From the IMG/VR virus record IMGVR_UViG_2582580966_000005: a stretch of 18,833 nucleotides of DNA. One strand, given 5' to 3'. Source of the stretch: a virus (taxonomy: Duplodnaviria > Heunggongvirae > Uroviricota > Caudoviricetes). The position numbers and the translations under genes were made by a program. Shown piece by piece: positions 1,525-14,861 of the stretch (within the stretch, counting starts at the first letter, position 1; every line of letters begins with the position of its first letter). Under the pieces are notes generated by a model that made no database searches, was not told the DNA's origin, and saw only the letters and a program-made list of their open reading frames with translations.

Positions 1525-1886
1525 GCGCGCGCCTTTTTCGCCTGTCTGGCGTTATTGCCGGTCTTTTTCCGGGGAGCATCCTGTACGGTTTCGGTTTCGG
1601 CTTCGGCTAAATCTGCACCGGTCTCTGCATGAACCACACCCGCCACGGCTCCCGCATCATCACCAGGCGTCTGTAGTATTCGTACAGTGAGGCATGGCTC
1701 CGCTTCCAGTCGGGCAAGCTGCTCCGGGGTGACGTCAACCTGCTGGCGTCCCCGCATGAACAGGAACCCCGCACGACGAAAATGCGTACGACTGCAACGC
1801 ACTTCTGCCAGTACCGTGACAGGACTGTCACCACTGACCTGAAGGCCTGAATCATCTGTTGCTGCCACAGTGTGATGTTCATTCAT
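1521..1886 (-). CDS. Hypothetical head-module protein (121 aa), Mu gp35 position
   Basis: ATG start with GGAGGG Shine-Dalgarno; stop overlaps the next ATG (ATGA). Confidence 0.5.
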   Translation of the reverse strand: MNEHHTVAATDDSGLQVSGDSPVTVLAEVRCSRTHFRRAGFLFMRGRQQVDVTPEQLARLEAEPCLTVRILQTPGDDAGAVAGVVHAETGADLAEAETETVQDAPRKKTGNNARQAKKARA

Positions 1887-1903
1887 ATTTGCCCTCCGCA
1901 GGG

Positions 1904-1922
1904 GCCGGGCCGTAAGCCCGGC
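1904..1922 (-). other. GC-rich stem-loop immediately downstream of the capsid gene (no U-tract)
   Basis: Minus strand reads GCCGGGC-ttacg-GCCCGGC (7-bp stem), placed between the capsid stop (1930) and the Shine-Dalgarno of the next gene. Confidence 0.45.
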
Positions 1923-1929
1923 TCACCGT

Positions 1930-2751
1930 TTACAGATAATCCGCGACAACCAGCTCCAGCTTGCCCTTCATCTCGTTAGAGACTGTGGCGTTACCGTCTG
2001 CGAACAGCTCGCGCTCCAGCAGCTGCACCGCCTGTTTTTCCAGCGAGGTGGGGACAACAATATGGGTGGGTTTGATGCCGAGTTTGCGGCCACCGTCAGC
2101 CTTAAAGTCACGCATGGCTGCCCAGCCGTGCCACAGCGCATCCAGCGTCAGCGGTGACTGCATCATGTAGGCCATCTGCCAGAAGCCGTAGCCCACATTG
2201 CGACGGGCGGAAGCACCGAACACAAACTCGTTATCAGTAAACGCACGGCCTTCATCGACTTTTGTCTGGGCAACCAGTTCGGCTTTGCGGCGATCCTGAT
2301 AAATCAGCGGTTTTACCGCGCGGGAGCAGTCAAGCAGATACCAGGCCGGGCCGCTGTAATCCGCCTGTGCACCGACAGAGCCGGTTTTTGCCACAAACAT
2401 ATTGCTGACCATCTGTGCATCACCGGAGCCATCCACTTTGGGGTAAACAGGGTGTTCGGTATCAAAGAAGTTCTGGCCGTCATAGCAGGCCGCATTCAGA
2501 CCATCACGCAGTGCAGCAAAGACCAGTTCATCCGGTTGTGCCGCAGCGGCACGACCCATTTCCTGGAATAACGGGGAGTAGATGCCGAGATTGTCGTCTT
2601 CAAAGTCATCGCGGCTATCCGCGTTCGCTTTTGAAAATGCGTCCTTCGGACTCAGCCTTATCCAGCAACTGCTCCAGCGTGGTGCTGCCGTGTTGTGCCG
2701 ACAGCGCGGCATATTCGGTACGCAGGGCGTTATACGTCTCAACGGGCACAT
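1930..2751 (-). CDS. Major capsid protein (Mu T / gp34-like); start unresolved
   Basis: The frame codes convincingly from about 2640 downward (...DDFEDDNLGIYSPLFQEMGRAAAAQPDELVF... to ...KGKLELVVADYL). The only upstream in-frame starts (ATG 2751, TTG 2742, ATG 2712) lie inside the I gene in a stretch with poor codon usage (aga, ata, agg) and four Cys; a stop at 2758..2760 closes the frame. Confidence 0.7.
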   Translation of the reverse strand: MCPLRRITPCVPNMPRCRHNTAAPRWSSCWIRLSPKDAFSKANADSRDDFEDDNLGIYSPLFQEMGRAAAAQPDELVFAALRDGLNAACYDGQNFFDTEHPVYPKVDGSGDAQMVSNMFVAKTGSVGAQADYSGPAWYLLDCSRAVKPLIYQDRRKAELVAQTKVDEGRAFTDNEFVFGASARRNVGYGFWQMAYMMQSPLTLDALWHGWAAMRDFKADGGRKLGIKPTHIVVPTSLEKQAVQLLERELFADGNATVSNEMKGKLELVVADYL

Positions 2752-3529
2752 ATTTCGTCAGATCAATAGTGCCGCCAGTTGGTGTGCCTTTTGCGGTTTC
2801 CAGTTCTGCCGACAGGCTGGCAACCTGCGTTTTCAGGGTGTCGTGCGCATCCGCACGGGTTTTGCTCCCGGTAAGGGCAGACAGCGCCGCCGTGCCCAGT
2901 TCCGGTGTAAATTCGTCACCGTCAGCCACGGTCAGACCGAGCGCCGTCAGCAACTGGCGTAATTGCTCATTCATGGGGGATTGCTCCTGAGAAGGGGAAA
3001 CGACATAGAGATCATCAGCACTGAGTGCCGCGACAGGGTTCATACCCGTAATACCCGGATCATTCGTCAGGGAAGCCATGCGCAACAGGTAGGGCTCCCC
3101 GGTGTCAGCGAAATAATGCATATATGCAGACAGATAGGCATATTCACGGTCATCAATATGTTTTTGTGCCTGTGGTGTCCATTCAGGTTTAATGAAAATC
3201 CCCTGACCCTCACGCCATTCGATGTTTTCCGGCTTAACCCATCCTGCAGCAATAGCCTTGAATCCGTTTTTCTGCGCATTCACGGAGTGATGGTCATAAT
3301 CAATCAGTAACGGCTGATGCAGGGCGGAAAGCCCGGCTTTCATCCGGTTACAGGCGGATTCGTTAATCAGCCAGCCTTCAGTCGGTTTTTCCGGGCGACC
3401 GTCACGGGCCTTTACCCGACCGGCTGGCAGTAACTGACACCATCCGTCGCCGGATGCAGTCAGCGAAGCTGAAAGCACGGCTAAACCGGAGGGGCGATTT
3501 GCGTCTTTTGGGTGATTTTCTGTCTTCAT
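2615..3529 (-). CDS. Protease/scaffold protein (Mu I / gp32-like), 304 aa
   Basis: ATG start; Ala/Leu/Thr-rich coiled-coil-like C-terminal half, consistent with a scaffold domain. My hand translation of 2641..2950 confirms this frame with host-like codon usage. Confidence 0.75.
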   Translation of the reverse strand: MKTENHPKDANRPSGLAVLSASLTASGDGWCQLLPAGRVKARDGRPEKPTEGWLINESACNRMKAGLSALHQPLLIDYDHHSVNAQKNGFKAIAAGWVKPENIEWREGQGIFIKPEWTPQAQKHIDDREYAYLSAYMHYFADTGEPYLLRMASLTNDPGITGMNPVAALSADDLYVVSPSQEQSPMNEQLRQLLTALGLTVADGDEFTPELGTAALSALTGSKTRADAHDTLKTQVASLSAELETAKGTPTGGTIDLTKYVPVETYNALRTEYAALSAQHGSTTLEQLLDKAESEGRIFKSERG

Positions 3530-3706
3530 ACCGGCAGCATAAGCCGGGTATTTTTGGGGCTGGTTTTGCGGGACTTCAGAAAGTGCTGACAGGGGGGGAA
3601 TGAGAAAGGCGCTTCACGCAGATTTTAAAGCCCGTTAAATACAGGTTAGAAAATCACGACACGCGCCTGAAGGGGGTAAGGTAATACGTTTACATACCTT
3701 AAACCA
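3530..3706 (-). promoter_or_regulatory. Candidate late promoter/operator region upstream of the I gene
   Basis: Longest non-coding gap in the head module (177 bp). Contains a 7-bp inverted repeat (plus 3677..3683 taaggta and 3695..3701 tacctta) and C-tracts (CCCCC, CCCCCCC) on the minus strand. Mu has a C-dependent promoter upstream of I. Confidence 0.3.
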
Positions 3707-4180
3707 TTACGGCGTTTCTGTGGCCTTTTTAAAGCGTTTTCTGATTTCGTCCATGATCTCCTGTTCTGCCACCTGATCAAAGCCCATATACGGACGTGCG
3801 CCAATGGCCGCCGGTCCCGGTGGCATACCAGGCAGGCCACCCCACTGATGAATGGCTGCATAAGGTTCATTTGATCCAATCAGCGCCCAGGTATCGCCAT
3901 AATCCGTGGTCAGGCGGCGGGCCAGATCGCCGTTCAGCGTCAGGATTTTGCCGGGCGTGTATCCCTTACGGGTACGCCACTCACGGTAAGGATCTGACCA
4001 GTCATGCCAGCGTTCACCATCCGGCTCTTTTTCCTGCTCAAACGCCATTTCTGACGATGACAGAAGACTCGCCGCCACACTGCGGGCCAGGTCTTTTCCG
4101 CCGCCCACAAACTGAAGCCGGGCAAACACTCGCTGGAGACGCGTAACGTCAACAACGACAGCTGCATCAATGGATGACAT
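3707..4180 (-). CDS. Virion morphogenesis protein (Mu G / gp31-like), 157 aa
   Basis: ATG start with GGAGG Shine-Dalgarno; size and position between F and I match Mu G. Confidence 0.7.
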   Translation of the reverse strand: MSSIDAAVVVDVTRLQRVFARLQFVGGGKDLARSVAASLLSSSEMAFEQEKEPDGERWHDWSDPYREWRTRKGYTPGKILTLNGDLARRLTTDYGDTWALIGSNEPYAAIHQWGGLPGMPPGPAAIGARPYMGFDQVAEQEIMDEIRKRFKKATETP

Positions 4181-4301
4181 ATTGCCTCCGCATAAAGGAT
4201 GAATATAAAATAAACAGGCGGTCAGTGTACGCTTAACTGGTAAAGTCGGTGCCTGCCTCCGGGTGGATCATGTATGCGGGTTCGACCCCCGCCACTGACC
4301 G

Positions 4302-5633
4302 TTAATCAATTTGTCCTTCCAGCACCTCAAGCATTCCGCCCCGGATATCCGATTTCAGCTTATCCATATTGATAACCCGGTAAGCATTCACAATCACATC
4401 CAGTTTGTCGGGCTGACGTTTCAGACTGTACGGTGCATTAACGGCAATCTGCACACTGCCATCCTGATTTTCCACGATATACATCAGATTGTTGTGCCGT
4501 TTGTCCCACAGTACCGCTTTTGGCCTTGCCAGCATTGCCGGTAAGCGCCCGAAGTCCTCCGGCGTCAGAGCGATGCCGTCATTCTGATGTTTCACACTGT
4601 CCGCATGGAGCACATTTTTACCGCTCATCGCCAGCAGGCGGGCCGGTGGCGTTCCCGTCCGGCTTTCCACTGCCTGCGCAATGCTTTCAGTCATAAAGCC
4701 CAGCGTGCGGATATCGTTACCACCTCGCCGGGTCTGCATGATGTTTTTTGCCCAGATGCGGAACGCCAGCTGCCGCTCCGGGCTGTTGTTCATCTCCTGA
4801 ACCACCATTTCCCGTAACGCCGGGCTTTTCACCTCGATCAGTTTGCGGATCAGCGCCTGGTCTGTGCCGAACGCTGCCGAGCCGGGGTTATATGACCAGC
4901 CCACATCCGGTGTCATGGTTCTGGTGCCATCTGAATATGTGGTCACCGGCATTTCTCTGACTTCTCCGGTCTGTTTATCCACGCCAGCCTCAACATTGCG
5001 GGTGGAGAGATGATCCTCACCGGATGAAACGGATAACCCCATTGCATCCAGACGGGCCTGAGACAATGGCCGCACACGGCAGCGGCAGTTCCAGCCATTG
5101 GGCGGGTAGTGTGTTTTCCAGAACGGATCGTCATAGCGGAATACCAGACCGTTAAGGGCGGAATGCGACGGGCGGGTACGGCTGTCCATGACCGCCACAT
5201 ACTGCCAGAACGGATGCGTGTCCGTGTTGTTCATCATCTGCGTGTAACGCCCGGCATTGTAAGCCACACGGGTGTTCACGTTGTAAATCAGCACCAGACG
5301 ACGGGGACTGCCCAGCTGCACTTCTTCCGCGTTACCGTCGCTGTCCACCACAATCTGCTTTCCCCACCATCCCAGCTTTTGCAGGCGTGGCGTCAGTGTG
5401 CGGATAAATTCTTTCTGTGAAATCCCCTCATCAATGGCCCGCTGCACTTCGGCCTGTAATGTGGTTACCACATCCAGCCGTGCCGTTTTTGCTGCCGTGA
5501 ATGAGCGGGCATGAACATCCGCGTCTGTTTCGAACCAGTTCCAGCTGATATGCGCCCCTTTGGCGCGGAAGTATGCCACCGTCTCTTTTGAGGGAAGCGT
5601 GGCGGCATAACCTAAATCAATCCCCTGAGCCAT
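4302..5633 (-). CDS. Head morphogenesis protein (Mu F / gp30-like, SPP1 gp7 family), 443 aa
   Basis: ATG start with AAGGGGA Shine-Dalgarno; overlaps the portal 3-prime end by 17 nt. Central region with conserved-looking motifs (PFWQYVAVMDSRTRPSH, GWNCRCRV) typical of this family. Confidence 0.8.
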   Translation of the reverse strand: MAQGIDLGYAATLPSKETVAYFRAKGAHISWNWFETDADVHARSFTAAKTARLDVVTTLQAEVQRAIDEGISQKEFIRTLTPRLQKLGWWGKQIVVDSDGNAEEVQLGSPRRLVLIYNVNTRVAYNAGRYTQMMNNTDTHPFWQYVAVMDSRTRPSHSALNGLVFRYDDPFWKTHYPPNGWNCRCRVRPLSQARLDAMGLSVSSGEDHLSTRNVEAGVDKQTGEVREMPVTTYSDGTRTMTPDVGWSYNPGSAAFGTDQALIRKLIEVKSPALREMVVQEMNNSPERQLAFRIWAKNIMQTRRGGNDIRTLGFMTESIAQAVESRTGTPPARLLAMSGKNVLHADSVKHQNDGIALTPEDFGRLPAMLARPKAVLWDKRHNNLMYIVENQDGSVQIAVNAPYSLKRQPDKLDVIVNAYRVINMDKLKSDIRGGMLEVLEGQID

Positions 5634-7215
5634 CCAGCATCCCCTTCATTTCCGCAGCAAACATGGCATCACTGAGCAGCGTCATCAGGCGGGAATCATC
5701 CATTTCACGGTAAAGGGCAGGCAGGTCTGCCAGTGCCTCCGCCAGCCCCCGCGTTCTGATGACATCAATGACCGGCTCCAGCACCGGATCGATGGCCTCC
5801 TGTAAGCGGCGGGCAGGCACCGCGTCCCCCATGTCGTCCAGTTCATCACGCGGCGTGTTTTTCGCTTCCGGCAGTCGGGCTGAAAGCGCCGTCTGTTCTG
5901 TCTTTTCCTGTTTTTCCGGTAGCGTTTCCCTGTCAGGCATGGCCGGTTCATTACTGCTCTGACGGACACGGAATATGGCTTCACCGGGCGTGGGCTGTGG
6001 AATACCGGTCTGCTCCCGTACCCAGGGATCAGGAATATCCATCCCCGCACTGAGTTGCATCACCGCACTGGCTATTTTGGTGATATCCCCCGGTTCTTTG
6101 GTCTGGAAACAGATACGCGGCAGGCGACGGATATCAATGGCGTGGGCGGTGTTCAGGGCATACAGCGGATACACCAGATCGCGGTTTAGGGTTGCAGCCA
6201 GCTGGCGTAAATCAGAATCCCTGATTTCCCGGCGCACCTCGTTATGCACCTCACCCAGCGAGCGCGCGCCTTTGTCTCCGGCTTCTGTGGTCAGCGTGCC
6301 GCCGAGTATTGCTTTGGAGATGGAACGCTCACCCCACGAAATCATGGTTTCAAACGGATCGGCCTGACCGTTCGCTGCCGCCTGAAACTCCAGCGACATC
6401 CCGGCCGGGATGATCCCGCCTGTACGTCGCCCGATATCCATCACCGCCCGCATCAGGGCACTTTTCTGCTCCGGTGTTGCCCCGGACGGGTATTTCCCGA
6501 CCTTCATTGGCAGGCCGTACACCTCCAGAAATTCCGCCAGATCGCGCACGGAATAGTTTTTGAAAATGAACGGCCAGATAAGCGTTCTGACAAGCCCCGT
6601 CGCACCACCGTAGCCGGTGCGTGAACGCGACTGATGCACTATCCAGCCAAAGGGCTGAAACGCCACCCCGGCATGGCTGCCGTCACGCAGCCGCAGTTCG
6701 CTCAAATCATCCGGGTTAAGGCAGAAATGCCCGCTGTCACGCCATCGGATGGCGCGGATGATGTGCATCTTACCGAGCATCCCGTGCTCAATCTCCATGC
6801 AGGAATAGCCCTTCAGGATGGCATCGGTGGCATCAAATAACATGGCATCAAACCAGTCGGCGGAATGCAGATATTCGTCGAGCATTTCCGCGTCCTTTTT
6901 CTCATTCGCGCTGGCGTTCGGTGGCGGCTCAATGCTCCATGGCACCCCCTGAATGGCAAGACGTCGCTTGCCCAGCTCCGCAAAAAGGTGGGTGTCCTTT
7001 TCTTCAATGTCAGCCGCCAGATCGGACTGGGCAATCAGATCGCCACGTTCAGCCCCGCGAAGGCACTGCGCCGCCCGGTTCGGGGTGATACCCGAGGCGG
7101 GATGCTCAACATAACGGCTGGCAATCTGCGGAATATCCAGCGCGGTACTTTGCATCTCCGGGTCAAAGGAGAAAGGTTTTCCGTCAAGATCAATTATGCG
7201 TCCCACTACCAGCAC
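5617..7215 (-). CDS. Portal protein (Mu gp29-like, DUF935 family), about 532 aa
   Basis: Track start at 7213..7215 is a GTG overlapping the terminase stop by 10 nt; first in-frame ATG is 20 codons further in. Large protein between terminase and F, as in Mu. Confidence 0.8.
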   Translation of the reverse strand: MLVVGRIIDLDGKPFSFDPEMQSTALDIPQIASRYVEHPASGITPNRAAQCLRGAERGDLIAQSDLAADIEEKDTHLFAELGKRRLAIQGVPWSIEPPPNASANEKKDAEMLDEYLHSADWFDAMLFDATDAILKGYSCMEIEHGMLGKMHIIRAIRWRDSGHFCLNPDDLSELRLRDGSHAGVAFQPFGWIVHQSRSRTGYGGATGLVRTLIWPFIFKNYSVRDLAEFLEVYGLPMKVGKYPSGATPEQKSALMRAVMDIGRRTGGIIPAGMSLEFQAAANGQADPFETMISWGERSISKAILGGTLTTEAGDKGARSLGEVHNEVRREIRDSDLRQLAATLNRDLVYPLYALNTAHAIDIRRLPRICFQTKEPGDITKIASAVMQLSAGMDIPDPWVREQTGIPQPTPGEAIFRVRQSSNEPAMPDRETLPEKQEKTEQTALSARLPEAKNTPRDELDDMGDAVPARRLQEAIDPVLEPVIDVIRTRGLAEALADLPALYREMDDSRLMTLLSDAMFAAEMKGMLDGSGD

Positions 7216-8870
7216 CCCCGATCAAATTCATGATATGCCTCATCGTCATCACGATAACCGCCCTCCATTGCCCGCGACCGCTCCGGCAGCGCCTGACAGG
7301 CTGATTCATCCAGGATGAAACCCTCCATGTATGACGCCCGGTTTGCCATACAGAGTGCCACGGCAAAATCACCATGGCGGCGGGCGTTCGCAGCCGTTGC
7401 GTTCTGGTCCTTCGTGCGCCCCTTGTCGATTTGCGGGATACCATTCACCACCTTCACATGGCGCAAATCATCAAGCGTGGTCTGATGGCGGGCGACGAGG
7501 ATATTCTGATCTTCAAACTCGGCTTTCAGTTTTGGCATCCACTCGCCGTACCACTTCGGCGACAACATCACGCAGTCGATGATGTCCGGGCCAAAGGCCA
7601 GCAGTGCGGCCTCTGCCAGATAGCCGCCGTTACCGGTGGCGTCGAACGCCGCACCGACCAGCGCCGGAACGCGGGTCAGGATGTACATCATCACCTGTTC
7701 CTGCTGGGCATACGGCAGGTTGCGCAGCTCCACGCGAAACACCTCGCGCTTTGCCAGGAGTTCGGTGATTTCCAGCAGCACAAAGCAGGACAGGTCACCG
7801 GTGCGGGCAAAGTCTTCCCCGAAGCTGAAGCGGGAACGGGGATTTAATTTCTCTGTAAGCGGTTTTAAATGTTCTTCACACCAGGTTAAAACTTCCGATT
7901 CACGCAGCCATGCGGCACGGCTGATGAAGTCGTCCGGGGCTTCAAACGTCAGAATCGGGATGTCACGAATCATCGCCATTTCAATAAGCGCGTGAGGAAT
8001 ATAGGCACCGCCGGATTTTTTCGGGATACAGCCGTATTCCTCGTCGGCATCCTCACGGGTCGGGGCGTTTTTGTAGAGATCATCACGCCATTTCTGCTCG
8101 CTTTCCGGTGACCATTCCTGATCGGTGACGTAACAGATACGACGGTACAGCCCGTCCGCAATGGCATCATCCAGGGTTATGCGGTGGACGCTGTAATCCT
8201 TGCGCCCCTCGCGGGCTTCCTGAATGTACTGATTAAACAGATTATCGACGCCGTTATGCGTGGAAATAATGCGCACGCGTGCGCCCCACATGGTAAGCGC
8301 CATTGCCGCCTTGAGAAGCTCATCCAGTGACTCGTGGAACGCGGCTTCATCAATCACCACATCCCCCTGAAGACCGCGCAGGTTTGACGGACGGGAAGAC
8401 AATGCCTGAATTTTGAATCCACTGTTCGGAAAGCGGATCATGTAGGTCAGAATTTCTTCTTTTTTATCCCGATCCCAGAATGTCTGCTCATACACATCAG
8501 CATCTGCCAGCTGGTTAAAGGCACGGGAGAACAGCGCGCAGGCAGAAATATATTCCAGCGCCATCTCCTGTTTTGACCCCACATAAAACACATTACGGCC
8601 ACCACGACGCTTAGGCTTTGCGGCGGTAATGACGTTACGCCCGGCTTCCGCCCAGGTAAGCCCGGTGCGTCGGGATTTCTCCGCGATGCAGACCTGACTT
8701 TCATCTGCAAACCAGCGGGCCTGATAATCCAGAAACACCGGCATATCACCGGGCAAATCAAGGCTGTCCGGCACATCCACGCCCAGCAGGGCTTTTTCAC
8801 CGGACAGATCAATTTTGCGGGGAGGTGTCATTTGTATCAGTGAAGGAGACTTTTCTTTGGCTTTGTTCAT
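7206..8870 (-). CDS. Terminase large subunit (Mu gp28-like), 554 aa
   Basis: ATG at 8868..8870, coupled to the upstream ORF. Size, position upstream of the portal, and ATPase/nuclease-type motifs (e.g. VIDEAAFHE) fit a large terminase. Confidence 0.85.
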   Translation of the reverse strand: MNKAKEKSPSLIQMTPPRKIDLSGEKALLGVDVPDSLDLPGDMPVFLDYQARWFADESQVCIAEKSRRTGLTWAEAGRNVITAAKPKRRGGRNVFYVGSKQEMALEYISACALFSRAFNQLADADVYEQTFWDRDKKEEILTYMIRFPNSGFKIQALSSRPSNLRGLQGDVVIDEAAFHESLDELLKAAMALTMWGARVRIISTHNGVDNLFNQYIQEAREGRKDYSVHRITLDDAIADGLYRRICYVTDQEWSPESEQKWRDDLYKNAPTREDADEEYGCIPKKSGGAYIPHALIEMAMIRDIPILTFEAPDDFISRAAWLRESEVLTWCEEHLKPLTEKLNPRSRFSFGEDFARTGDLSCFVLLEITELLAKREVFRVELRNLPYAQQEQVMMYILTRVPALVGAAFDATGNGGYLAEAALLAFGPDIIDCVMLSPKWYGEWMPKLKAEFEDQNILVARHQTTLDDLRHVKVVNGIPQIDKGRTKDQNATAANARRHGDFAVALCMANRASYMEGFILDESACQALPERSRAMEGGYRDDDEAYHEFDRGCW

Positions 8871-9118
8871 CAGGCTTTACCTGTCAGAATGCTTTTGATT
8901 CGGAACTCAAGCTCTTCAGTCATCACGTCCACGCCACTCAACTCATCAGTGACAGCCCCTGCCAGCAGCGAATGCAGTTGTTCCAGGGATATTTCCCCGG
9001 CAATGCTGAGTTCAGTCAACTCACGACACGCTTTTATGGTTTCAGGAGGTAACTGTGTTGCAAGACTGAATGCCTTCTGATGAGCACTGCTCATCAGTGA
9101 GCGGTTATCTGTTACCAC
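8870..9118 (-). CDS. Small protein (82 aa) sharing the C-terminal motif of the upstream gp27-like protein
   Basis: GTG start at 9116..9118 (checked by hand) with a strong AGGAGGTG Shine-Dalgarno overlapping the gp27-like stop; its stop overlaps the large terminase ATG. C-terminus AVTDELSGVDVMTEELEFRIKSILTGKA parallels AVTDELRGVDGMSEQIEFRIRQMLLGKA. Confidence 0.5.
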   Translation of the reverse strand: MVTDNRSLMSSAHQKAFSLATQLPPETIKACRELTELSIAGEISLEQLHSLLAGAVTDELSGVDVMTEELEFRIKSILTGKA

Positions 9119-9128
9119 GATTCACCTC

Positions 9129-9710
9129 CTACGCCTTACCAAGCAGCATCTGCCTGATACGGAATTCTATCTGCTCGCTCATGCCATCCACGCCGCGCAA
9201 CTCGTCGGTGACGGCGTTCGCCATCTCTTCAGCAAATGCGGCCCGGATTTCTTTTTCACGCTTAATGCTGCGCTCGGCGGCACTTTCCGCACGCTGTGCC
9301 GACAGGAGGATGTCCTTAATAAGGCGCATATCCACATCGCTGTCGCTGTTCAGGGATTCGGTGGCGGCACGCAGACGGCGGTACATCAGGGCACGGGACA
9401 TCTCCAGAATCAGTGCCGTGGTTTCACCGGTCGGCTTATCCCCCAGTTCGGCCATCATGGCTTTTGTCTGCTCGCGTAAATCACGCAGATTACGGGCAAT
9501 CAGCTCATTACGGGAGGCTTCCCGGCTGATGGCCGCCGGTGAAAGCTGCTGCTCTTCCGGCAGGCCTGCCTCACGGATCAGACGGTTGATTTCCTCGCGG
9601 ATCTGGACCTGCGTCAGGCGTTTTTCACGCAGCATTTCCAGCAGCGGCTTACGGATGCTGTCGGGGAGCAAATCCACCTTGCGTACACGGCCACGCGTCG
9701 GCTTATCCAT
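9129..9710 (-). CDS. Mu gp27-like DNA-binding protein (DUF3486 family; putative small terminase-like subunit), 193 aa
   Basis: ATG start with AAGGGGG Shine-Dalgarno. Basic N-terminus (RGRVRKVDLLPDSIRKPLLEMLREKRLTQVQIREEINRL); located two genes upstream of the large terminase. Confidence 0.6.
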   Translation of the reverse strand: MDKPTRGRVRKVDLLPDSIRKPLLEMLREKRLTQVQIREEINRLIREAGLPEEQQLSPAAISREASRNELIARNLRDLREQTKAMMAELGDKPTGETTALILEMSRALMYRRLRAATESLNSDSDVDMRLIKDILLSAQRAESAAERSIKREKEIRAAFAEEMANAVTDELRGVDGMSEQIEFRIRQMLLGKA

Positions 9711-9712
9711 CG

Positions 9713-10003
9713 TTACCCCCTTGCGCGTGGTTTCTTCACACCCGGAACAGTGGCACGACCTTCCGCCACATCCTGACCCCGGCCGGTCAGTTCAGCGATG
9801 AAATAACCGTTAACAAGCGTGCGCTTACGCACCAGTCCCTGCTCAGCAAGCCAGGCAATGTGGGTGTGAACGGTGTCGCGGGACACGCGGTGGCCGTAAT
9901 CATCCAGGCAGTCCTGAAGCACGGATTCGCCCAGTTCGCCGTTGTAATCCGCCAGCGACCGCAGAATGACAAGACGCTGATCTTCAGTAATGAAATCACT
10001 CAT
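9713..10003 (-). CDS. Hypothetical protein (96 aa), Mu gp26 position; possible winged-helix fold
   Basis: ATG start with AAGGA Shine-Dalgarno; overlaps the upstream gene by 8 nt. Confidence 0.5.
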   Translation of the reverse strand: MSDFITEDQRLVILRSLADYNGELGESVLQDCLDDYGHRVSRDTVHTHIAWLAEQGLVRKRTLVNGYFIAELTGRGQDVAEGRATVPGVKKPRARG

Positions 10004-10307
10004 TGTGTTTTTTCCTTACAGCCTGCTCCAGCAGCAGTTCGTTCTGATGAGAGACGGATTTCAGGGTGGCGTTGGTGGCCTTTAGCTCACCGCGCAGGGT
10101 GGTGATTTCGATATTGAGTCTGTTCACCTCCTGCTGCGTGGGCAGGCCGGAAATCCGGCTCTCCACCCGCTCAACCCGATCGGAGAGTTTTTCAAAGGCC
10201 TCGCGGGGGACGAAGGTTTTGCGCATCAGCGCCATGAAGATCCCCCCGGCCGTGGCCGTTGCCGACAGGATCGGCACAACATAATCTTTAACGATGCTGA
10301 CCCACAT
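9996..10307 (-). CDS. Small membrane protein with N-terminal TM helix and coiled-coil C-terminus (103 aa); Mu gp25/DUF2730-like, possible releasin
   Basis: ATG start with GGAGG Shine-Dalgarno. TM segment VVPILSATATAGGIFMALM. Sits after the spanins as in the Mu lysis cassette. The releasin assignment is inferred from position and architecture. Confidence 0.45.
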   Translation of the reverse strand: MWVSIVKDYVVPILSATATAGGIFMALMRKTFVPREAFEKLSDRVERVESRISGLPTQQEVNRLNIEITTLRGELKATNATLKSVSHQNELLLEQAVRKKHNE

Positions 10308-12216: not shown

Positions 12217-12252
12217 GTTTAAAATAAAAATCCCGCGCTGTGGCGGGATTTG
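12217..12252 (-). terminator. Rho-independent terminator for minus-strand transcripts, between gemA and the Mor/C-like gene
   Basis: Read on the minus strand: AAATCCCGC-cacagc-GCGGGATTT (9-bp stem, 6-nt loop) followed by TTATTTTAAA. Plus-strand arms are 12228..12236 and 12243..12251. Confidence 0.6.
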
Positions 12253-12255
12253 GGG

Positions 12256-12765
12256 TTAAAAAGGGGAGGATTCTTCATACAGCCTGCAAACGCGCTCATA
12301 ACTCATCACTGTACGCACTGACATCCCCAGCACATCCAGCATCTTGCGACGGTGCCAGCGTTTGAGACACTCCAGCACATCCGAGGCCAGTGCGGGGTGT
12401 TGCTCCAGCCACTGCCAGTTAGCCACACCTTCGCCACCGTTCTGCGCGGCCGTCTGCGACTTCACCCAGCGGTTAAGGGCCGTTTCCCCGCCATCAGCGA
12501 TAAAGCCCTGCCGGTGCATTACCTTCCAGATGGCGCGAATTTTGGCGGTCACCGTACCCGGTTTTAAGGCCCGGTTAACCGGTTTCTGACGCACTTTAAA
12601 ACCGCGTTTTTTGAAAACATCCAGCACGCGGGATAACTCATCCGGTGACATATCCCGGCAACTGGATTTGCCGGTGGCTGCCAGCAGAACGAATGTATAG
12701 GTTTCATCATCCAGGGCAAGCTCGCGCTTTGCCACATGAATGGCGGATATCAGTTTCCCTCTCAT
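12256..12765 (-). CDS. gemA: GemA-like regulatory protein (Mu gp16 / DUF1018 family), 169 aa
   Basis: ATG start. N-terminal LISAIHVAKRELALDDETYTFVLLAATGKSSCRDMSPDELSRVLDVFKKRGF matches my recollection of the GemA family; sits immediately upstream of the Mor/C-like gene as in Mu. Confidence 0.75.
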   Translation of the reverse strand: MRGKLISAIHVAKRELALDDETYTFVLLAATGKSSCRDMSPDELSRVLDVFKKRGFKVRQKPVNRALKPGTVTAKIRAIWKVMHRQGFIADGGETALNRWVKSQTAAQNGGEGVANWQWLEQHPALASDVLECLKRWHRRKMLDVLGMSVRTVMSYERVCRLYEESSPF

Positions 12766-13058
12766 GCTGTATCAACACTCCTGCTGATATGATAGATATT
12801 ATTTTCCCGATCGAGCTGAACCCGATACTCCGGAGGAATCACAAAAATATTAAAACCATCAACAGTTTTTATTCTTGAGTAGTATTCCCCCTTATGATAT
12901 CTGGCAAGTGCATTAATCAGAGAAGCCGCCGCCAGCCCAATCAGGTATTTTTTATGAAAAATACTGATAACTTTCCGGCACAGCCATCGTGTAATGACGA
13001 ATGCACCGAAAAACGATGTGATATATAAACACCAGAACAACTGCGAACTACTGTCCAT
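12762..13058 (-). CDS. Small membrane protein (98 aa, one N-terminal TM helix)
   Basis: ATG start with AAGGAG Shine-Dalgarno; stop overlaps the gemA start (ATGA). TM segment LFWCLYITSFFGAFVITRWLC. Very AT-rich (about 27% G+C on one sampled line). Confidence 0.5.
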   Translation of the reverse strand: MDSSSQLFWCLYITSFFGAFVITRWLCRKVISIFHKKYLIGLAAASLINALARYHKGEYYSRIKTVDGFNIFVIPPEYRVQLDRENNIYHISRSVDTA

Positions 13059-13245
13059 TATCTTTCTCCTTATTCAGTCTTCTGCGGCATTCGGCACAGT
13101 CATCAGGGCTTTCAAATGTATCCGGCTCGCGATTATGAGCCAGATATAACCACCGCCCACATATACTGATATTTTCACCTGTTTTAAAAAAATGATGCTT
13201 CTTAGCCATCAATGGCCGCGCCCATCCAGCGGGTAGACTATTCAT
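13048..13245 (-). CDS. Small Cys/His-containing protein (65 aa), possible zinc-binding
   Basis: ATG start with GGAGGA Shine-Dalgarno; overlaps both neighbours. Cys and His residues spaced as ...HHFF...C...H...CAEC...; zinc binding is a guess. Confidence 0.45.
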   Translation of the reverse strand: MNSLPAGWARPLMAKKHHFFKTGENISICGRWLYLAHNREPDTFESPDDCAECRRRLNKEKDNGQ

Positions 13246-13612
13246 TAGCTTTATCCTCCATGCTGGACAGAATCATATGTATTAATGTCGGGCGTGGAGA
13301 TATACGCATTTCATTAAGCGTCTGAAGGGCAGCAACAGCAGCCATTTTATCGGTGCCTCTGGCAATTTCTGCAAGAGAATGCACAATCCATAACGGACTT
13401 AACGCTACGGCTGAATCCAGAATCATGTCATCCATAATAATTTCTGGCACATCCCGTTTGTCACATTCTTTATCCATAAAAGAAACGATTTTTTCCGCAT
13501 CTTCCGGTTTCATACCTCCGGCGATAAGAATTTTACGATATTCATAAGACGTTCTTAATTCAATGCTCATATTCATCTCCTGTAACTCTGACAAGGACGT
13601 GATTTTTCTCAT
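13238..13612 (-). CDS. Hypothetical soluble protein (124 aa) in the AT-rich island
   Basis: ATG start with GGGAGG Shine-Dalgarno, coupled to the upstream gene. Manual counts on lines within this gene give about 37-42% G+C. Confidence 0.5.
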   Translation of the reverse strand: MRKITSLSELQEMNMSIELRTSYEYRKILIAGGMKPEDAEKIVSFMDKECDKRDVPEIIMDDMILDSAVALSPLWIVHSLAEIARGTDKMAAVAALQTLNEMRISPRPTLIHMILSSMEDKANE

Positions 13613-13794
13613 TTACGCCTCCCGGAAATACGAATGTATATACCGATGAGAAAATCCATAATAAACAGGAAGAGCGACATCCTGATAAAGAACCAAATGT
13701 CAGGCATAATGGACAGGTTTCCTGTAATCGCAAATATAAAACCAGTCCCCCACACTGGAACGATAATTGCGAAAAATACAAGTCTCTTTATCAT
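13609..13794 (-). CDS. Small hydrophobic membrane protein (61 aa, two predicted TM helices)
   Basis: ATG start with GGGAG Shine-Dalgarno; ATGA overlap at both ends. Hydrophobic stretches LVFFAIIVPVWGTGFIFAITG and IWFFIRMSLFLFIMDFLIGIYI. AT-rich. Confidence 0.45.
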   Translation of the reverse strand: MIKRLVFFAIIVPVWGTGFIFAITGNLSIMPDIWFFIRMSLFLFIMDFLIGIYIRISGRRK

Positions 13795-14342
13795 GGCGTT
13801 AACTCCCGTAATACAGCGTCCTCGGCGGTCCGTCGACGGTAATAAACAGCGTGAGCAGAATGTTCAGATATGCCAAACTTTTCGCCAATTTCCCGGAATG
13901 ACAGACGGCGAGGGTAATCGGAATCCCGTAGTGCACGTATAAGACGAACATCCTCATCAGATATACGTGTGCCGGGGCGTAACTCACCGCACTTTGTTAA
14001 TCCGGCACCAATCATTCCTGCGCGGCACCTGACAGAGTCTTTATTACGTCCGAGATAATCCCCCATTTGCTGGCAGGTCATTGTCCGGGCATTTTTTCGG
14101 ATAAATTTATCTTCATCAGGTGTAAATCGCGGTCGTTTATATTTCAGCAACTCCGGGTATGTACTGCGCAATACGCCAGTCCGGTTATATACGGCCCAGA
14201 CACTTCTTTTTATTCTGGCGGCAATATCCTTAACCGGGGTGGAGGAATAAAGCGCAATCAGCAGCGCATCTTCTTCAGGTGTCCACGGGCGGACATGAGC
14301 AGGTGCACGACCTTTTCGCCCCATGGGTTGTAATTTCATCAT
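13791..14342 (-). CDS. Putative DNA-binding protein with Myb/SANT-like repeats and a C-terminal HTH (183 aa)
   Basis: ATG start with AGGGGGTGA Shine-Dalgarno. Repeats WTPEEDALLIALYSSTPVKDIAARIKRSVWAVYNRTG and FTPDEDKFIRKNARTMTCQQMGDYLGRNKDSVRCRAG resemble Myb/SANT helices; the C-terminal LSFREIGEKFGISEHSAHAVYY looks like an HTH. G+C is lower than the backbone. Confidence 0.55.
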   Translation of the reverse strand: MMKLQPMGRKGRAPAHVRPWTPEEDALLIALYSSTPVKDIAARIKRSVWAVYNRTGVLRSTYPELLKYKRPRFTPDEDKFIRKNARTMTCQQMGDYLGRNKDSVRCRAGMIGAGLTKCGELRPGTRISDEDVRLIRALRDSDYPRRLSFREIGEKFGISEHSAHAVYYRRRTAEDAVLRELTP

Positions 14343-14345
14343 GCA

Positions 14346-14861
14346 TCACCCCCTGACTCGCTTTTCAGCAGCATAAAACTCATCAGACAGAATTTCGGTC
14401 ATTTTCTGATTTGCGGGTTTTACACCGCACTGAAGATAAATCACATCGTCAACGCAGAACCACTCCACAGGGCCATACAGGATTGCTGAGAAATCAATGC
14501 CCAGCCAGAACAACAGGGCATCGGTTCTGGCATACGTGACGGGCGAATATTCACGCCACAGACTGTTCAGTTCGTCAGAGGCAGTGCGCAGGGCTTTGGG
14601 AATGCGCGATGTGCGCGGCGTGCAGCTCCAGCCATTCGACGCAGTCGGTTTTCGCCATAAATCACGATGAAAAGGATATTTGTCATTCGTAAAACGCAGC
14701 CCCTTAAAACAAAAACCGCTGATACCGGATACAAATACCGACCGGCACTCAACATTCAGCACGGCCTCAAGGCGTTTTGCCTCATCCTTAACTTGCTGGC
14801 AGTCCTGCTGATATTTTTGCCACGCAGCCAGCGCGGAAGGGTTCGATGTTTTAAAGAACAT
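14346..14861 (-). CDS. Hypothetical protein (171 aa), variable early region
   Basis: ATG start with GGAGGTG Shine-Dalgarno, overlapping the upstream stop. No family recognised. Confidence 0.5.
   Translation of the reverse strand: MFFKTSNPSALAAWQKYQQDCQQVKDEAKRLEAVLNVECRSVFVSGISGFCFKGLRFTNDKYPFHRDLWRKPTASNGWSCTPRTSRIPKALRTASDELNSLWREYSPVTYARTDALLFWLGIDFSAILYGPVEWFCVDDVIYLQCGVKPANQKMTEILSDEFYAAEKRVRG

Follow-up and report, generated by a model that had tools for sequence, protein, structure and literature searches.

Transposable phages have a semi-essential early region, which is described as long, poorly conserved and rich in small uncharacterised genes (PMC8705779), and the gene studied here raises the question of what one such product is and what it may do for its phage. 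The DNA analysed, referred to as the window, is a stretch of 18,833 nucleotides (IMG/VR record IMGVR_UViG_2582580966_000005) that comes from a Mu-like prophage of Escherichia coli. The gene lies at 13791..14342 on the minus strand as an open reading frame with an ATG start, encodes 183 amino acids (aa) and heads the list of features in Table 1. The best explanation, to which we assign a probability of roughly 0.6, is that its product is an accessory early protein of three Myb/SANT-like helix-turn-helix (HTH) modules, a member of PHROG 323 and a modulator of the D5 type.

The gene and its surroundings

The gene is an ordinary one and its Myb-like annotation is already present in databases, the encoded protein being identical to RefSeq WP_000977064.1, which is named "SANT/Myb-like DNA-binding domain-containing protein". 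Several complete genomes are 100% identical to the stretch 13600-14500, and in one of them a truncated fimbrial usher gene adjoins the prophage. Related proteins form more than 280 clusters at 90% identity, found in E. coli, Salmonella, Hafnia and Citrobacter, and a scan of genome contigs yielded one locus only, in Citrobacter murliniae. The ORF is a genuine gene that evolves under purifying selection, with a dN/dS of 0.05-0.25 against the alleles of other prophages (0.05-0.08 inside its own allele class, higher against a second class). The protein itself is strongly basic (pI 10.1; 37 K+R versus 22 D+E).

The second allele, an O157-type 'AsnC family protein' with 72-75% amino acid identity (loci L028-L048), sits between flanks that are 91-95% identical, and its dS of 0.65-0.70 stands against 0.16-0.25 in those flanks. 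Positive selection on this allele was considered and rejected in view of the high dS and a dN/dS of 0.23-0.25; the same values argue for a cassette-like replacement by recombination.

On the minus strand the genes run in the order Gam, a gene at the gp10 position, gp11, a gp12-like gene, the gene at 13791..14342, four small genes, GemA and Mor, with Pfam support from Phage_Mu_Gam for Gam and from Gp11_C for gp11. This placement, between the gp12-like gene and GemA/Mor of a Mu-like prophage, bears out the early operon proposed in the sequence-only reading. The same position was found in the 43 Mu-like IMG/VR loci (L009-L051), where the gene comes ahead of GemA and Mor and, where the upstream flank is covered, after gp12. 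The Shine-Dalgarno-like motif of the gene falls within the 3' end of the gp12-like gene, whose stop codon is at 14346-14348, and its stop codon overlaps the next start codon in a way that suggests an operon-style layout with translational coupling. Between GemA and Mor, a strong terminator-like hairpin (12228-12251, minus strand; 9 pairs followed by a T run) lies at the end of the early gene run. At about 4221-4300 of the window (5622-5701 of locus L001), between virion and head morphogenesis genes, RefSeq places a 'tRNA-OTHER'; ARAGORN and Rfam at gathering thresholds found no tRNA or RNA family anywhere in the window.

Homologs also occur outside Mu-like prophages. In Citrobacter, one lies directly before GemA in a B3-like transposable prophage (with DUF3164, DUF2786 and GemA), and in Salmonella, Hafnia and Citrobacter the homolog belongs to a P2-like early operon, upstream of the replication gene A. 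Its presence across Mu-like, B3-like and P2-like prophages therefore marks it as a mobile accessory early gene. In Mu, the equivalent slot is taken by the unrelated small genes gp13-gp15, and since Mu carries its two-unit relative gp9 elsewhere and other genes at this slot, the gene is dispensable for this type of phage.

Table 1. Features of the gene for the 183-aa protein and of its borders, in window coordinates
Feature	Position	Strand	Basis
CDS, triple Myb-like HTH protein, 183 aa	13791..14342	-	ORF, RefSeq identity, dN/dS
N-terminal arm, residues 1-18 (MMKLQPMGRKGRAPAHVR)	14289..14342	-	basic, low pLDDT, family-conserved
Unit 1, residues 19-61, starts WTPEED; predicted helices 22-31/37-44/48-61	14160..14288	-	alignment, profiles, model
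Unit 2, residues 72-110, starts FTPDED; predicted helices 75-84/90-97/101-110	14013..14129	-	alignment, profiles, model
Unit 3, residues 125-169, starts ISDEDV; predicted helices 129-140/149-156/160-169	13836..13970	-	Pfam, profiles, model
C-terminal helix, residues 173-181	13800..13826	-	alignment and model
Shine-Dalgarno-like AGGGGG, 6 nt upstream of ATG	14349..14354	-	read from sequence
ATGA stop/start overlap with downstream 61-aa membrane-protein gene	13791..13794	-	read from sequence

Three copies of one module

The motifs WTPEED and FTPDED, from which tandem repeats had been claimed, are present at residues 20-25 and 73-78. For a test of repetition, an alignment of 33 family sequences was cut into three segments that were compared profile against profile, giving E-values of 1.4e-15 for units 1 and 2, 3.2e-7 for units 2 and 3, and 2.8e-5 for units 1 and 3. 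Judged by these profiles, the repetition within the protein is far above chance, and the tandem arrangement of the first two units stands as originally described.

Structure prediction, which had been named as a check, points the same way. The AlphaFold2 model built on the family alignment (mean pLDDT 86.5, pTM 0.59) comprises three three-helix bundles with a period of 53 residues, a disordered basic N-terminal arm and an extra C-terminal helix, so that three-helix bundles of about 50 residues whose helices 2-3 make up an HTH, in tandem as in Myb/SANT proteins, are seen in all three units. Given homologous unit profiles and three bundles, the protein can be regarded as three copies of one module. 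By the same profile comparison, unit 3 is the most diverged copy of the repeat rather than a separate element; the "third HTH at the C-terminus" of the sequence-only reading is thus present, at about residues 125-170, but as a diverged third repeat and not as an element of a different kind. At a pTM of 0.59 the relative orientation of the units, and hence a DNA footprint, is not predicted. A Foldseek search of the PDB with the whole model gave no match at E<=1e-3.

The N-terminal arm follows the family consensus M.L.PMG.PGKCPAH.R, and residues 2-54, which include most of it, match PHROG 38779. The C-terminal helix has the consensus TA.DAIAREYLP and is confined to the 180-aa subfamily. A candidate metal site formed by C13, H16 and C118 was dropped, as position 13 is Ala in the 183-aa protein and position 118 is Tyr in others.

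Relation to Myb, GcrA and other tri-helical domains

In Pfam, Myb_DNA-binding (PF00249) matched the protein with 23.6 bits (E 5.8e-5, residues 19-33 aligned), 0.8 bits short of the gathering cut-off of 24.4. Myb_DNA-bind_6 matched more weakly, and unit 3 (125-170) drew weak matches to HTH_AsnC, HTH_10, HTH_38 and sigma-70 region 4. A sub-threshold sigma-70 ECF match was the sole NCBIfam result for the protein, and the PADLOC defence models gave no match to it or to seven neighbours at E<=0.01. Close relatives carry precomputed PF00249/PF13921 matches, and P0126 reaches 140 bits on Myb_DNA-binding. When the family profile was run against all PDB sequences, the best match was c-Myb R2R3 (E 2.7e-7), with two consecutive family units aligned on two consecutive Myb repeats, followed by B-Myb, v-Myb and the CRISPR-repeat-binding protein 2lvs. 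The claim of Myb/SANT repeats is supported by the c-Myb match of the family and by the high-scoring relatives; for the protein itself, the HMM search proposed earlier returned weak Myb and HTH matches and none above the Pfam Myb cut-off.

Compared with the eukaryotic Myb R2R3/SANT domains (PF00249, PF13921), the phage units keep only the first of the three tryptophans: W20 of unit 1 is invariant across the family, F73 of unit 2 is F, W or L, and the positions of the second and third Myb tryptophans are aliphatic or variable. In addition, the loop between helix 1 and helix 2 is about 3 residues shorter, and the context is a prokaryotic virus rather than a eukaryote. The likeness to Caulobacter GcrA (PDB 5yiu) is a fold match limited to its DNA-binding domain (DBD), of which GcrA has one where the phage protein has three. 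The sigma-70-interacting CCCH zinc domain of GcrA is missing here, Pfam GcrA (PF07750) gave no match for the 183-aa protein, and the model contains HTH units only. Archaeal Cbp (2lvs), which matched in fold as well as in the sequence-profile search (E 4.8e-5), and the bipartite DBDs of Tc3 and paired domains likewise consist of small tri-helical HTHs with linkers that together read a longer site; these belong to other lineages and biological roles, and the likeness is one of modules only. A fair description of the module is that of a Myb/SANT-like, GcrA-DBD-like tri-helical HTH. Domains of the SANT type can bind proteins in place of DNA.

A family with T5 D5 and Mu gp9

The protein matched PHROG 323, labelled "transcriptional regulator, D5-like", with an E-value of 2.5e-53 (182.7 bits), residues 2-182 lying on positions 80-256 of the 319 in the profile. 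The D5 protein of phage T5 and gp9 of phage Mu matched the same profile (E 1.2e-71 and 5.2e-29, respectively). These profile matches place the 183-aa protein, with its three units, in the T5 D5/Mu gp9 family as an uncharacterised member.

Direct comparison with D5 (T5.118, YP_006946.1) by hhalign with the family profile gave an E-value of 1.5e-10 over 147 columns, with residues 17-168 on D5 71-232 and all three units included, and tblastn of D5 against the window gave 6.9e-6 at 24.9% identity over 169 aa. The units align one to one, with WTPEQE and FTPDEE at the matching unit starts, and D5 is also an early gene. D5 is longer, with 255 aa, and carries about 70 additional residues at its N-terminus as well as a tail at its C-terminus. 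The absence of this D5-type N-terminal region is evident from where the matches begin, at position 80 of the profile and at residue 71 of D5. Units 1 and 2 are spaced by 63 residues in D5 and by 53 here, and D5 is essential to a virulent phage, in contrast to the gene at 13791..14342, which temperate phages carry as an accessory. D5 is reported to bind duplex DNA preferentially and cooperatively. The entry for D5 in the T5 GenBank record describes it as DNA-binding, as needed for DNA replication and late transcription, and as acting in the shutoff of other (earlier) T5 genes, with which the summary of McCorquodale et al. 1979 on D5, as cited in PMC12630848, agrees. A further T5 protein, T5.108 (1546-4332 of locus L088), which is annotated 'replication origin binding' and has a SANT/Myb InterPro domain, was set aside, as it shows no detectable relation to the family profile (hhalign E 0.48).

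Mu gp9 (E8, Mup09; 99 aa; 983-1282 of locus L087) aligned with the family profile over units 2-3 (hhalign E 3.2e-14). It has two units only and lies just upstream of gam, not after gp12. Like the 183-aa protein, it is an uncharacterised product of the semi-essential early region in a transposable phage; no separate gp9 homolog was found in the prophage. Mu gp9 and T5 D5 (9311-10078 of locus L088) can be seen as two-unit and three-unit arrays, respectively, of the same Myb-like module, and in the literature searched we found no description of either as such an array, no paper on the function of Mu gp9 and nothing on Myb-like proteins of Mu-like prophages.

A common module in phages

Myb-type repeats had been thought uncommon in bacterial and phage proteins, a view that does not hold. 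An exhaustive HMM search of 1.84 billion cluster representatives with the family profile found the repeat in 15,801 at E<=1e-3 and in 3,296 at E<=1e-10, many of them long and with 5-12 matched stretches, and PHROG 323 and 34 phage structures in BFVD matching at E<=1e-3 tell the same. The BFVD matches include a "Myb-like domain-containing protein" of phage Goslar, endonucleases and a "D5 protein". Copy numbers range from 2 to more than 10 in many phage proteins; P0126, an 807-aa metagenome protein, consists of an SF2 helicase followed by about ten tandem units, and P0224 exceeds the Pfam GcrA cut-off. Fusions to helicases, HNH endonucleases and Vsr endonucleases thus characterise a generic DNA-binding module. 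A precedent in bacteria and phages is found in phage G, in which Myb-type HTH factors related to RsfA of Firmicutes are expanded (PMC7824862); these differ from the 183-aa protein in hosts and architectures.

Two further architectures were noted. In Salmonella, a 280-aa protein (P0111) fuses DUF4406 to the full three-unit protein. In Thibault-like phages, as in gp109 of Mycobacterium phage Bombitas (2504-3931 of locus L007), a two-unit module lies inside a gene annotated as DNA methyltransferase or as HNH endonuclease, of which methyltransferase profiles match residues 1-180 only, with a second methyltransferase fragment following. This type of gene looks like a mobile endonuclease element that splits a methylase gene.

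Alternative readings

The surroundings of the gene had led to the proposal of a regulator of the neighbouring AT-rich island or of a host-directed factor. The AT-rich block (12762-13794) consists of four small genes (61, 124, 65 and 98 aa; GC 0.39-0.45), the 61-aa and 98-aa products of which read as membrane proteins, and its genes are variably present or replaced among similar prophages, the 98-aa gene being about 97% or about 51% identical. Our gene does adjoin this block, as had been remarked, but its own GC of 0.498 is like that of the upstream early genes and unlike that of the island. A multi-HTH protein encoded beside four small low-GC genes, and the existence of Myb-type HTH transcription factors in Firmicutes (RsfA) and phage G (PMC7824862), would fit a transcription factor with sequence-specific control over the island or over particular host genes. 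We consider such a role doubtful, as the island genes come after the gene within one operon and are probably coupled to it in translation through the ATGA overlap, promoter-like sites in the island number 7 against 6.8 expected, whether an island gene is present, missing or replaced does not depend on the gene, and homologs occur in P2-like and B3-like phages that do not have this island; scans for promoter-like and terminator-like signals near the gene likewise stayed at chance level. No evidence was found for a regulatory link to the island or for a host-directed role. It is far less probable that the protein is what remains, on its own, of the DNA-binding part of a homing endonuclease, a selfish element without a role for the phage. 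The two-unit module does occur in HNH endonuclease genes and in the element inserted into a DNA methylase gene of a mycobacteriophage, and endonucleases are among the BFVD matches, but the 183-aa protein has no nuclease domain, it keeps its full length, N-terminal arm and C-terminal helix, with purifying selection acting in Mu-like, B3-like and P2-like phages alike, and D5 and gp9, its free-standing homologs, are genuine early genes of their phages. Least credible of all is a metabolite-responsive regulator of the AsnC/Lrp family, a reading that draws on the name 'AsnC family protein' of many RefSeq relatives and on a weak HTH_AsnC-type match at residues 131-164 (E 7.4e-4). This match, at 19.7 bits against a cut-off of 27, covers the HTH alone, the AsnC_trans_reg (RAM) ligand-binding domain is absent in the Pfam search, and the model has helices only and no beta strands. 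Membership was rejected on this domain architecture, and because the RAM domain is absent and the HTH match is below threshold, the name is unjustified and was most likely carried over from a match to the HTH alone.

A different lead comes from P2-like prophages, in which a D12-class adenine methylase (Dam) is linked to the homolog in all 25 of the 25 IMG/VR loci, usually 0-700 bp upstream and often with a 4-nt overlap; in 2 of the 25 a different Dam (34% identical) lies directly downstream instead. When the search was started from Dam, the homolog was within 3 kb in 22 of 27 loci. In such prophages of Salmonella and relatives (7045-9547 of loci L002/L003; L052-L078; L089-L115), Dam and the triple-HTH homolog, sometimes joined by a PAPS-reductase-like gene, are closely packed upstream of the replication gene A, and their stop and start codons often overlap. 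The DNA-binding domain of GcrA reads methylated GANTC. Dam linkage together with the GcrA-like fold thus suggests a reader of N6-methyladenine or of hemimethylated GATC, or a partner or regulator of the adjacent phage Dam; in the Mu-like prophage, the mark would come from the host Dam. We regard this as unlikely, since the window has no Dam, several P2-like and all transposable phages have the homolog without Dam, two further upstream genes travel with the Dam/homolog pair, and the GcrA methyl-pocket residues R33, N34, I37 and G38 fall on variable positions of the repeat in a hand alignment. A shade less likely still is the fuller form of this idea, that the triple Myb-like protein reads or partners adenine methylation, as a two-gene module with phage Dam in P2-like prophages and together with host Dam in Mu-like ones, where its GcrA-DBD-like units would bind methylated or hemimethylated GATC DNA and couple methylation to phage replication or transcription.

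Proposed role and significance

We therefore return to the reading of an accessory, D5-like early protein. Fold, charge and homology make DNA binding very likely, and the protein most likely serves to modulate early lytic development by binding duplex DNA. In the mechanism we propose, the protein would be made from the early transcript after induction, and the third helix of each module (48-61, 101-110 and 160-169) would be inserted in the major groove of DNA; with three such helices in the groove, a monomer might contact an extended stretch of duplex. The protein may then sit on phage DNA and perhaps also on that of the host, and this occupancy might tune transposition replication and the switch from early to middle/late transcription, as reported for T5 D5. 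The analogy to D5, at 25% identity, speaks weakly for a D5-like regulatory role, and the specific roles of D5 may not transfer, owing to this low identity and to the N-terminal region of about 70 residues found only in D5.

For a specialist, nothing in this picture is surprising, and no new kind of system is described. The analysis places in a definable family a further gene from the semi-essential early region of Mu-like phages, a region that is poorly understood, and it ties together, as Myb-like HTH arrays, three proteins that are not commonly treated side by side: T5 D5, Mu gp9/E8 and a widespread prophage protein mislabelled as 'AsnC family'. It thus corrects an over-transferred name and provides a structural hypothesis for gp9 and for D5, a classical protein that is structurally undescribed. 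In addition, the frequent pairing with Dam in P2-like prophages represents a testable lead, and Myb-type repeats emerge as common building blocks in phages.
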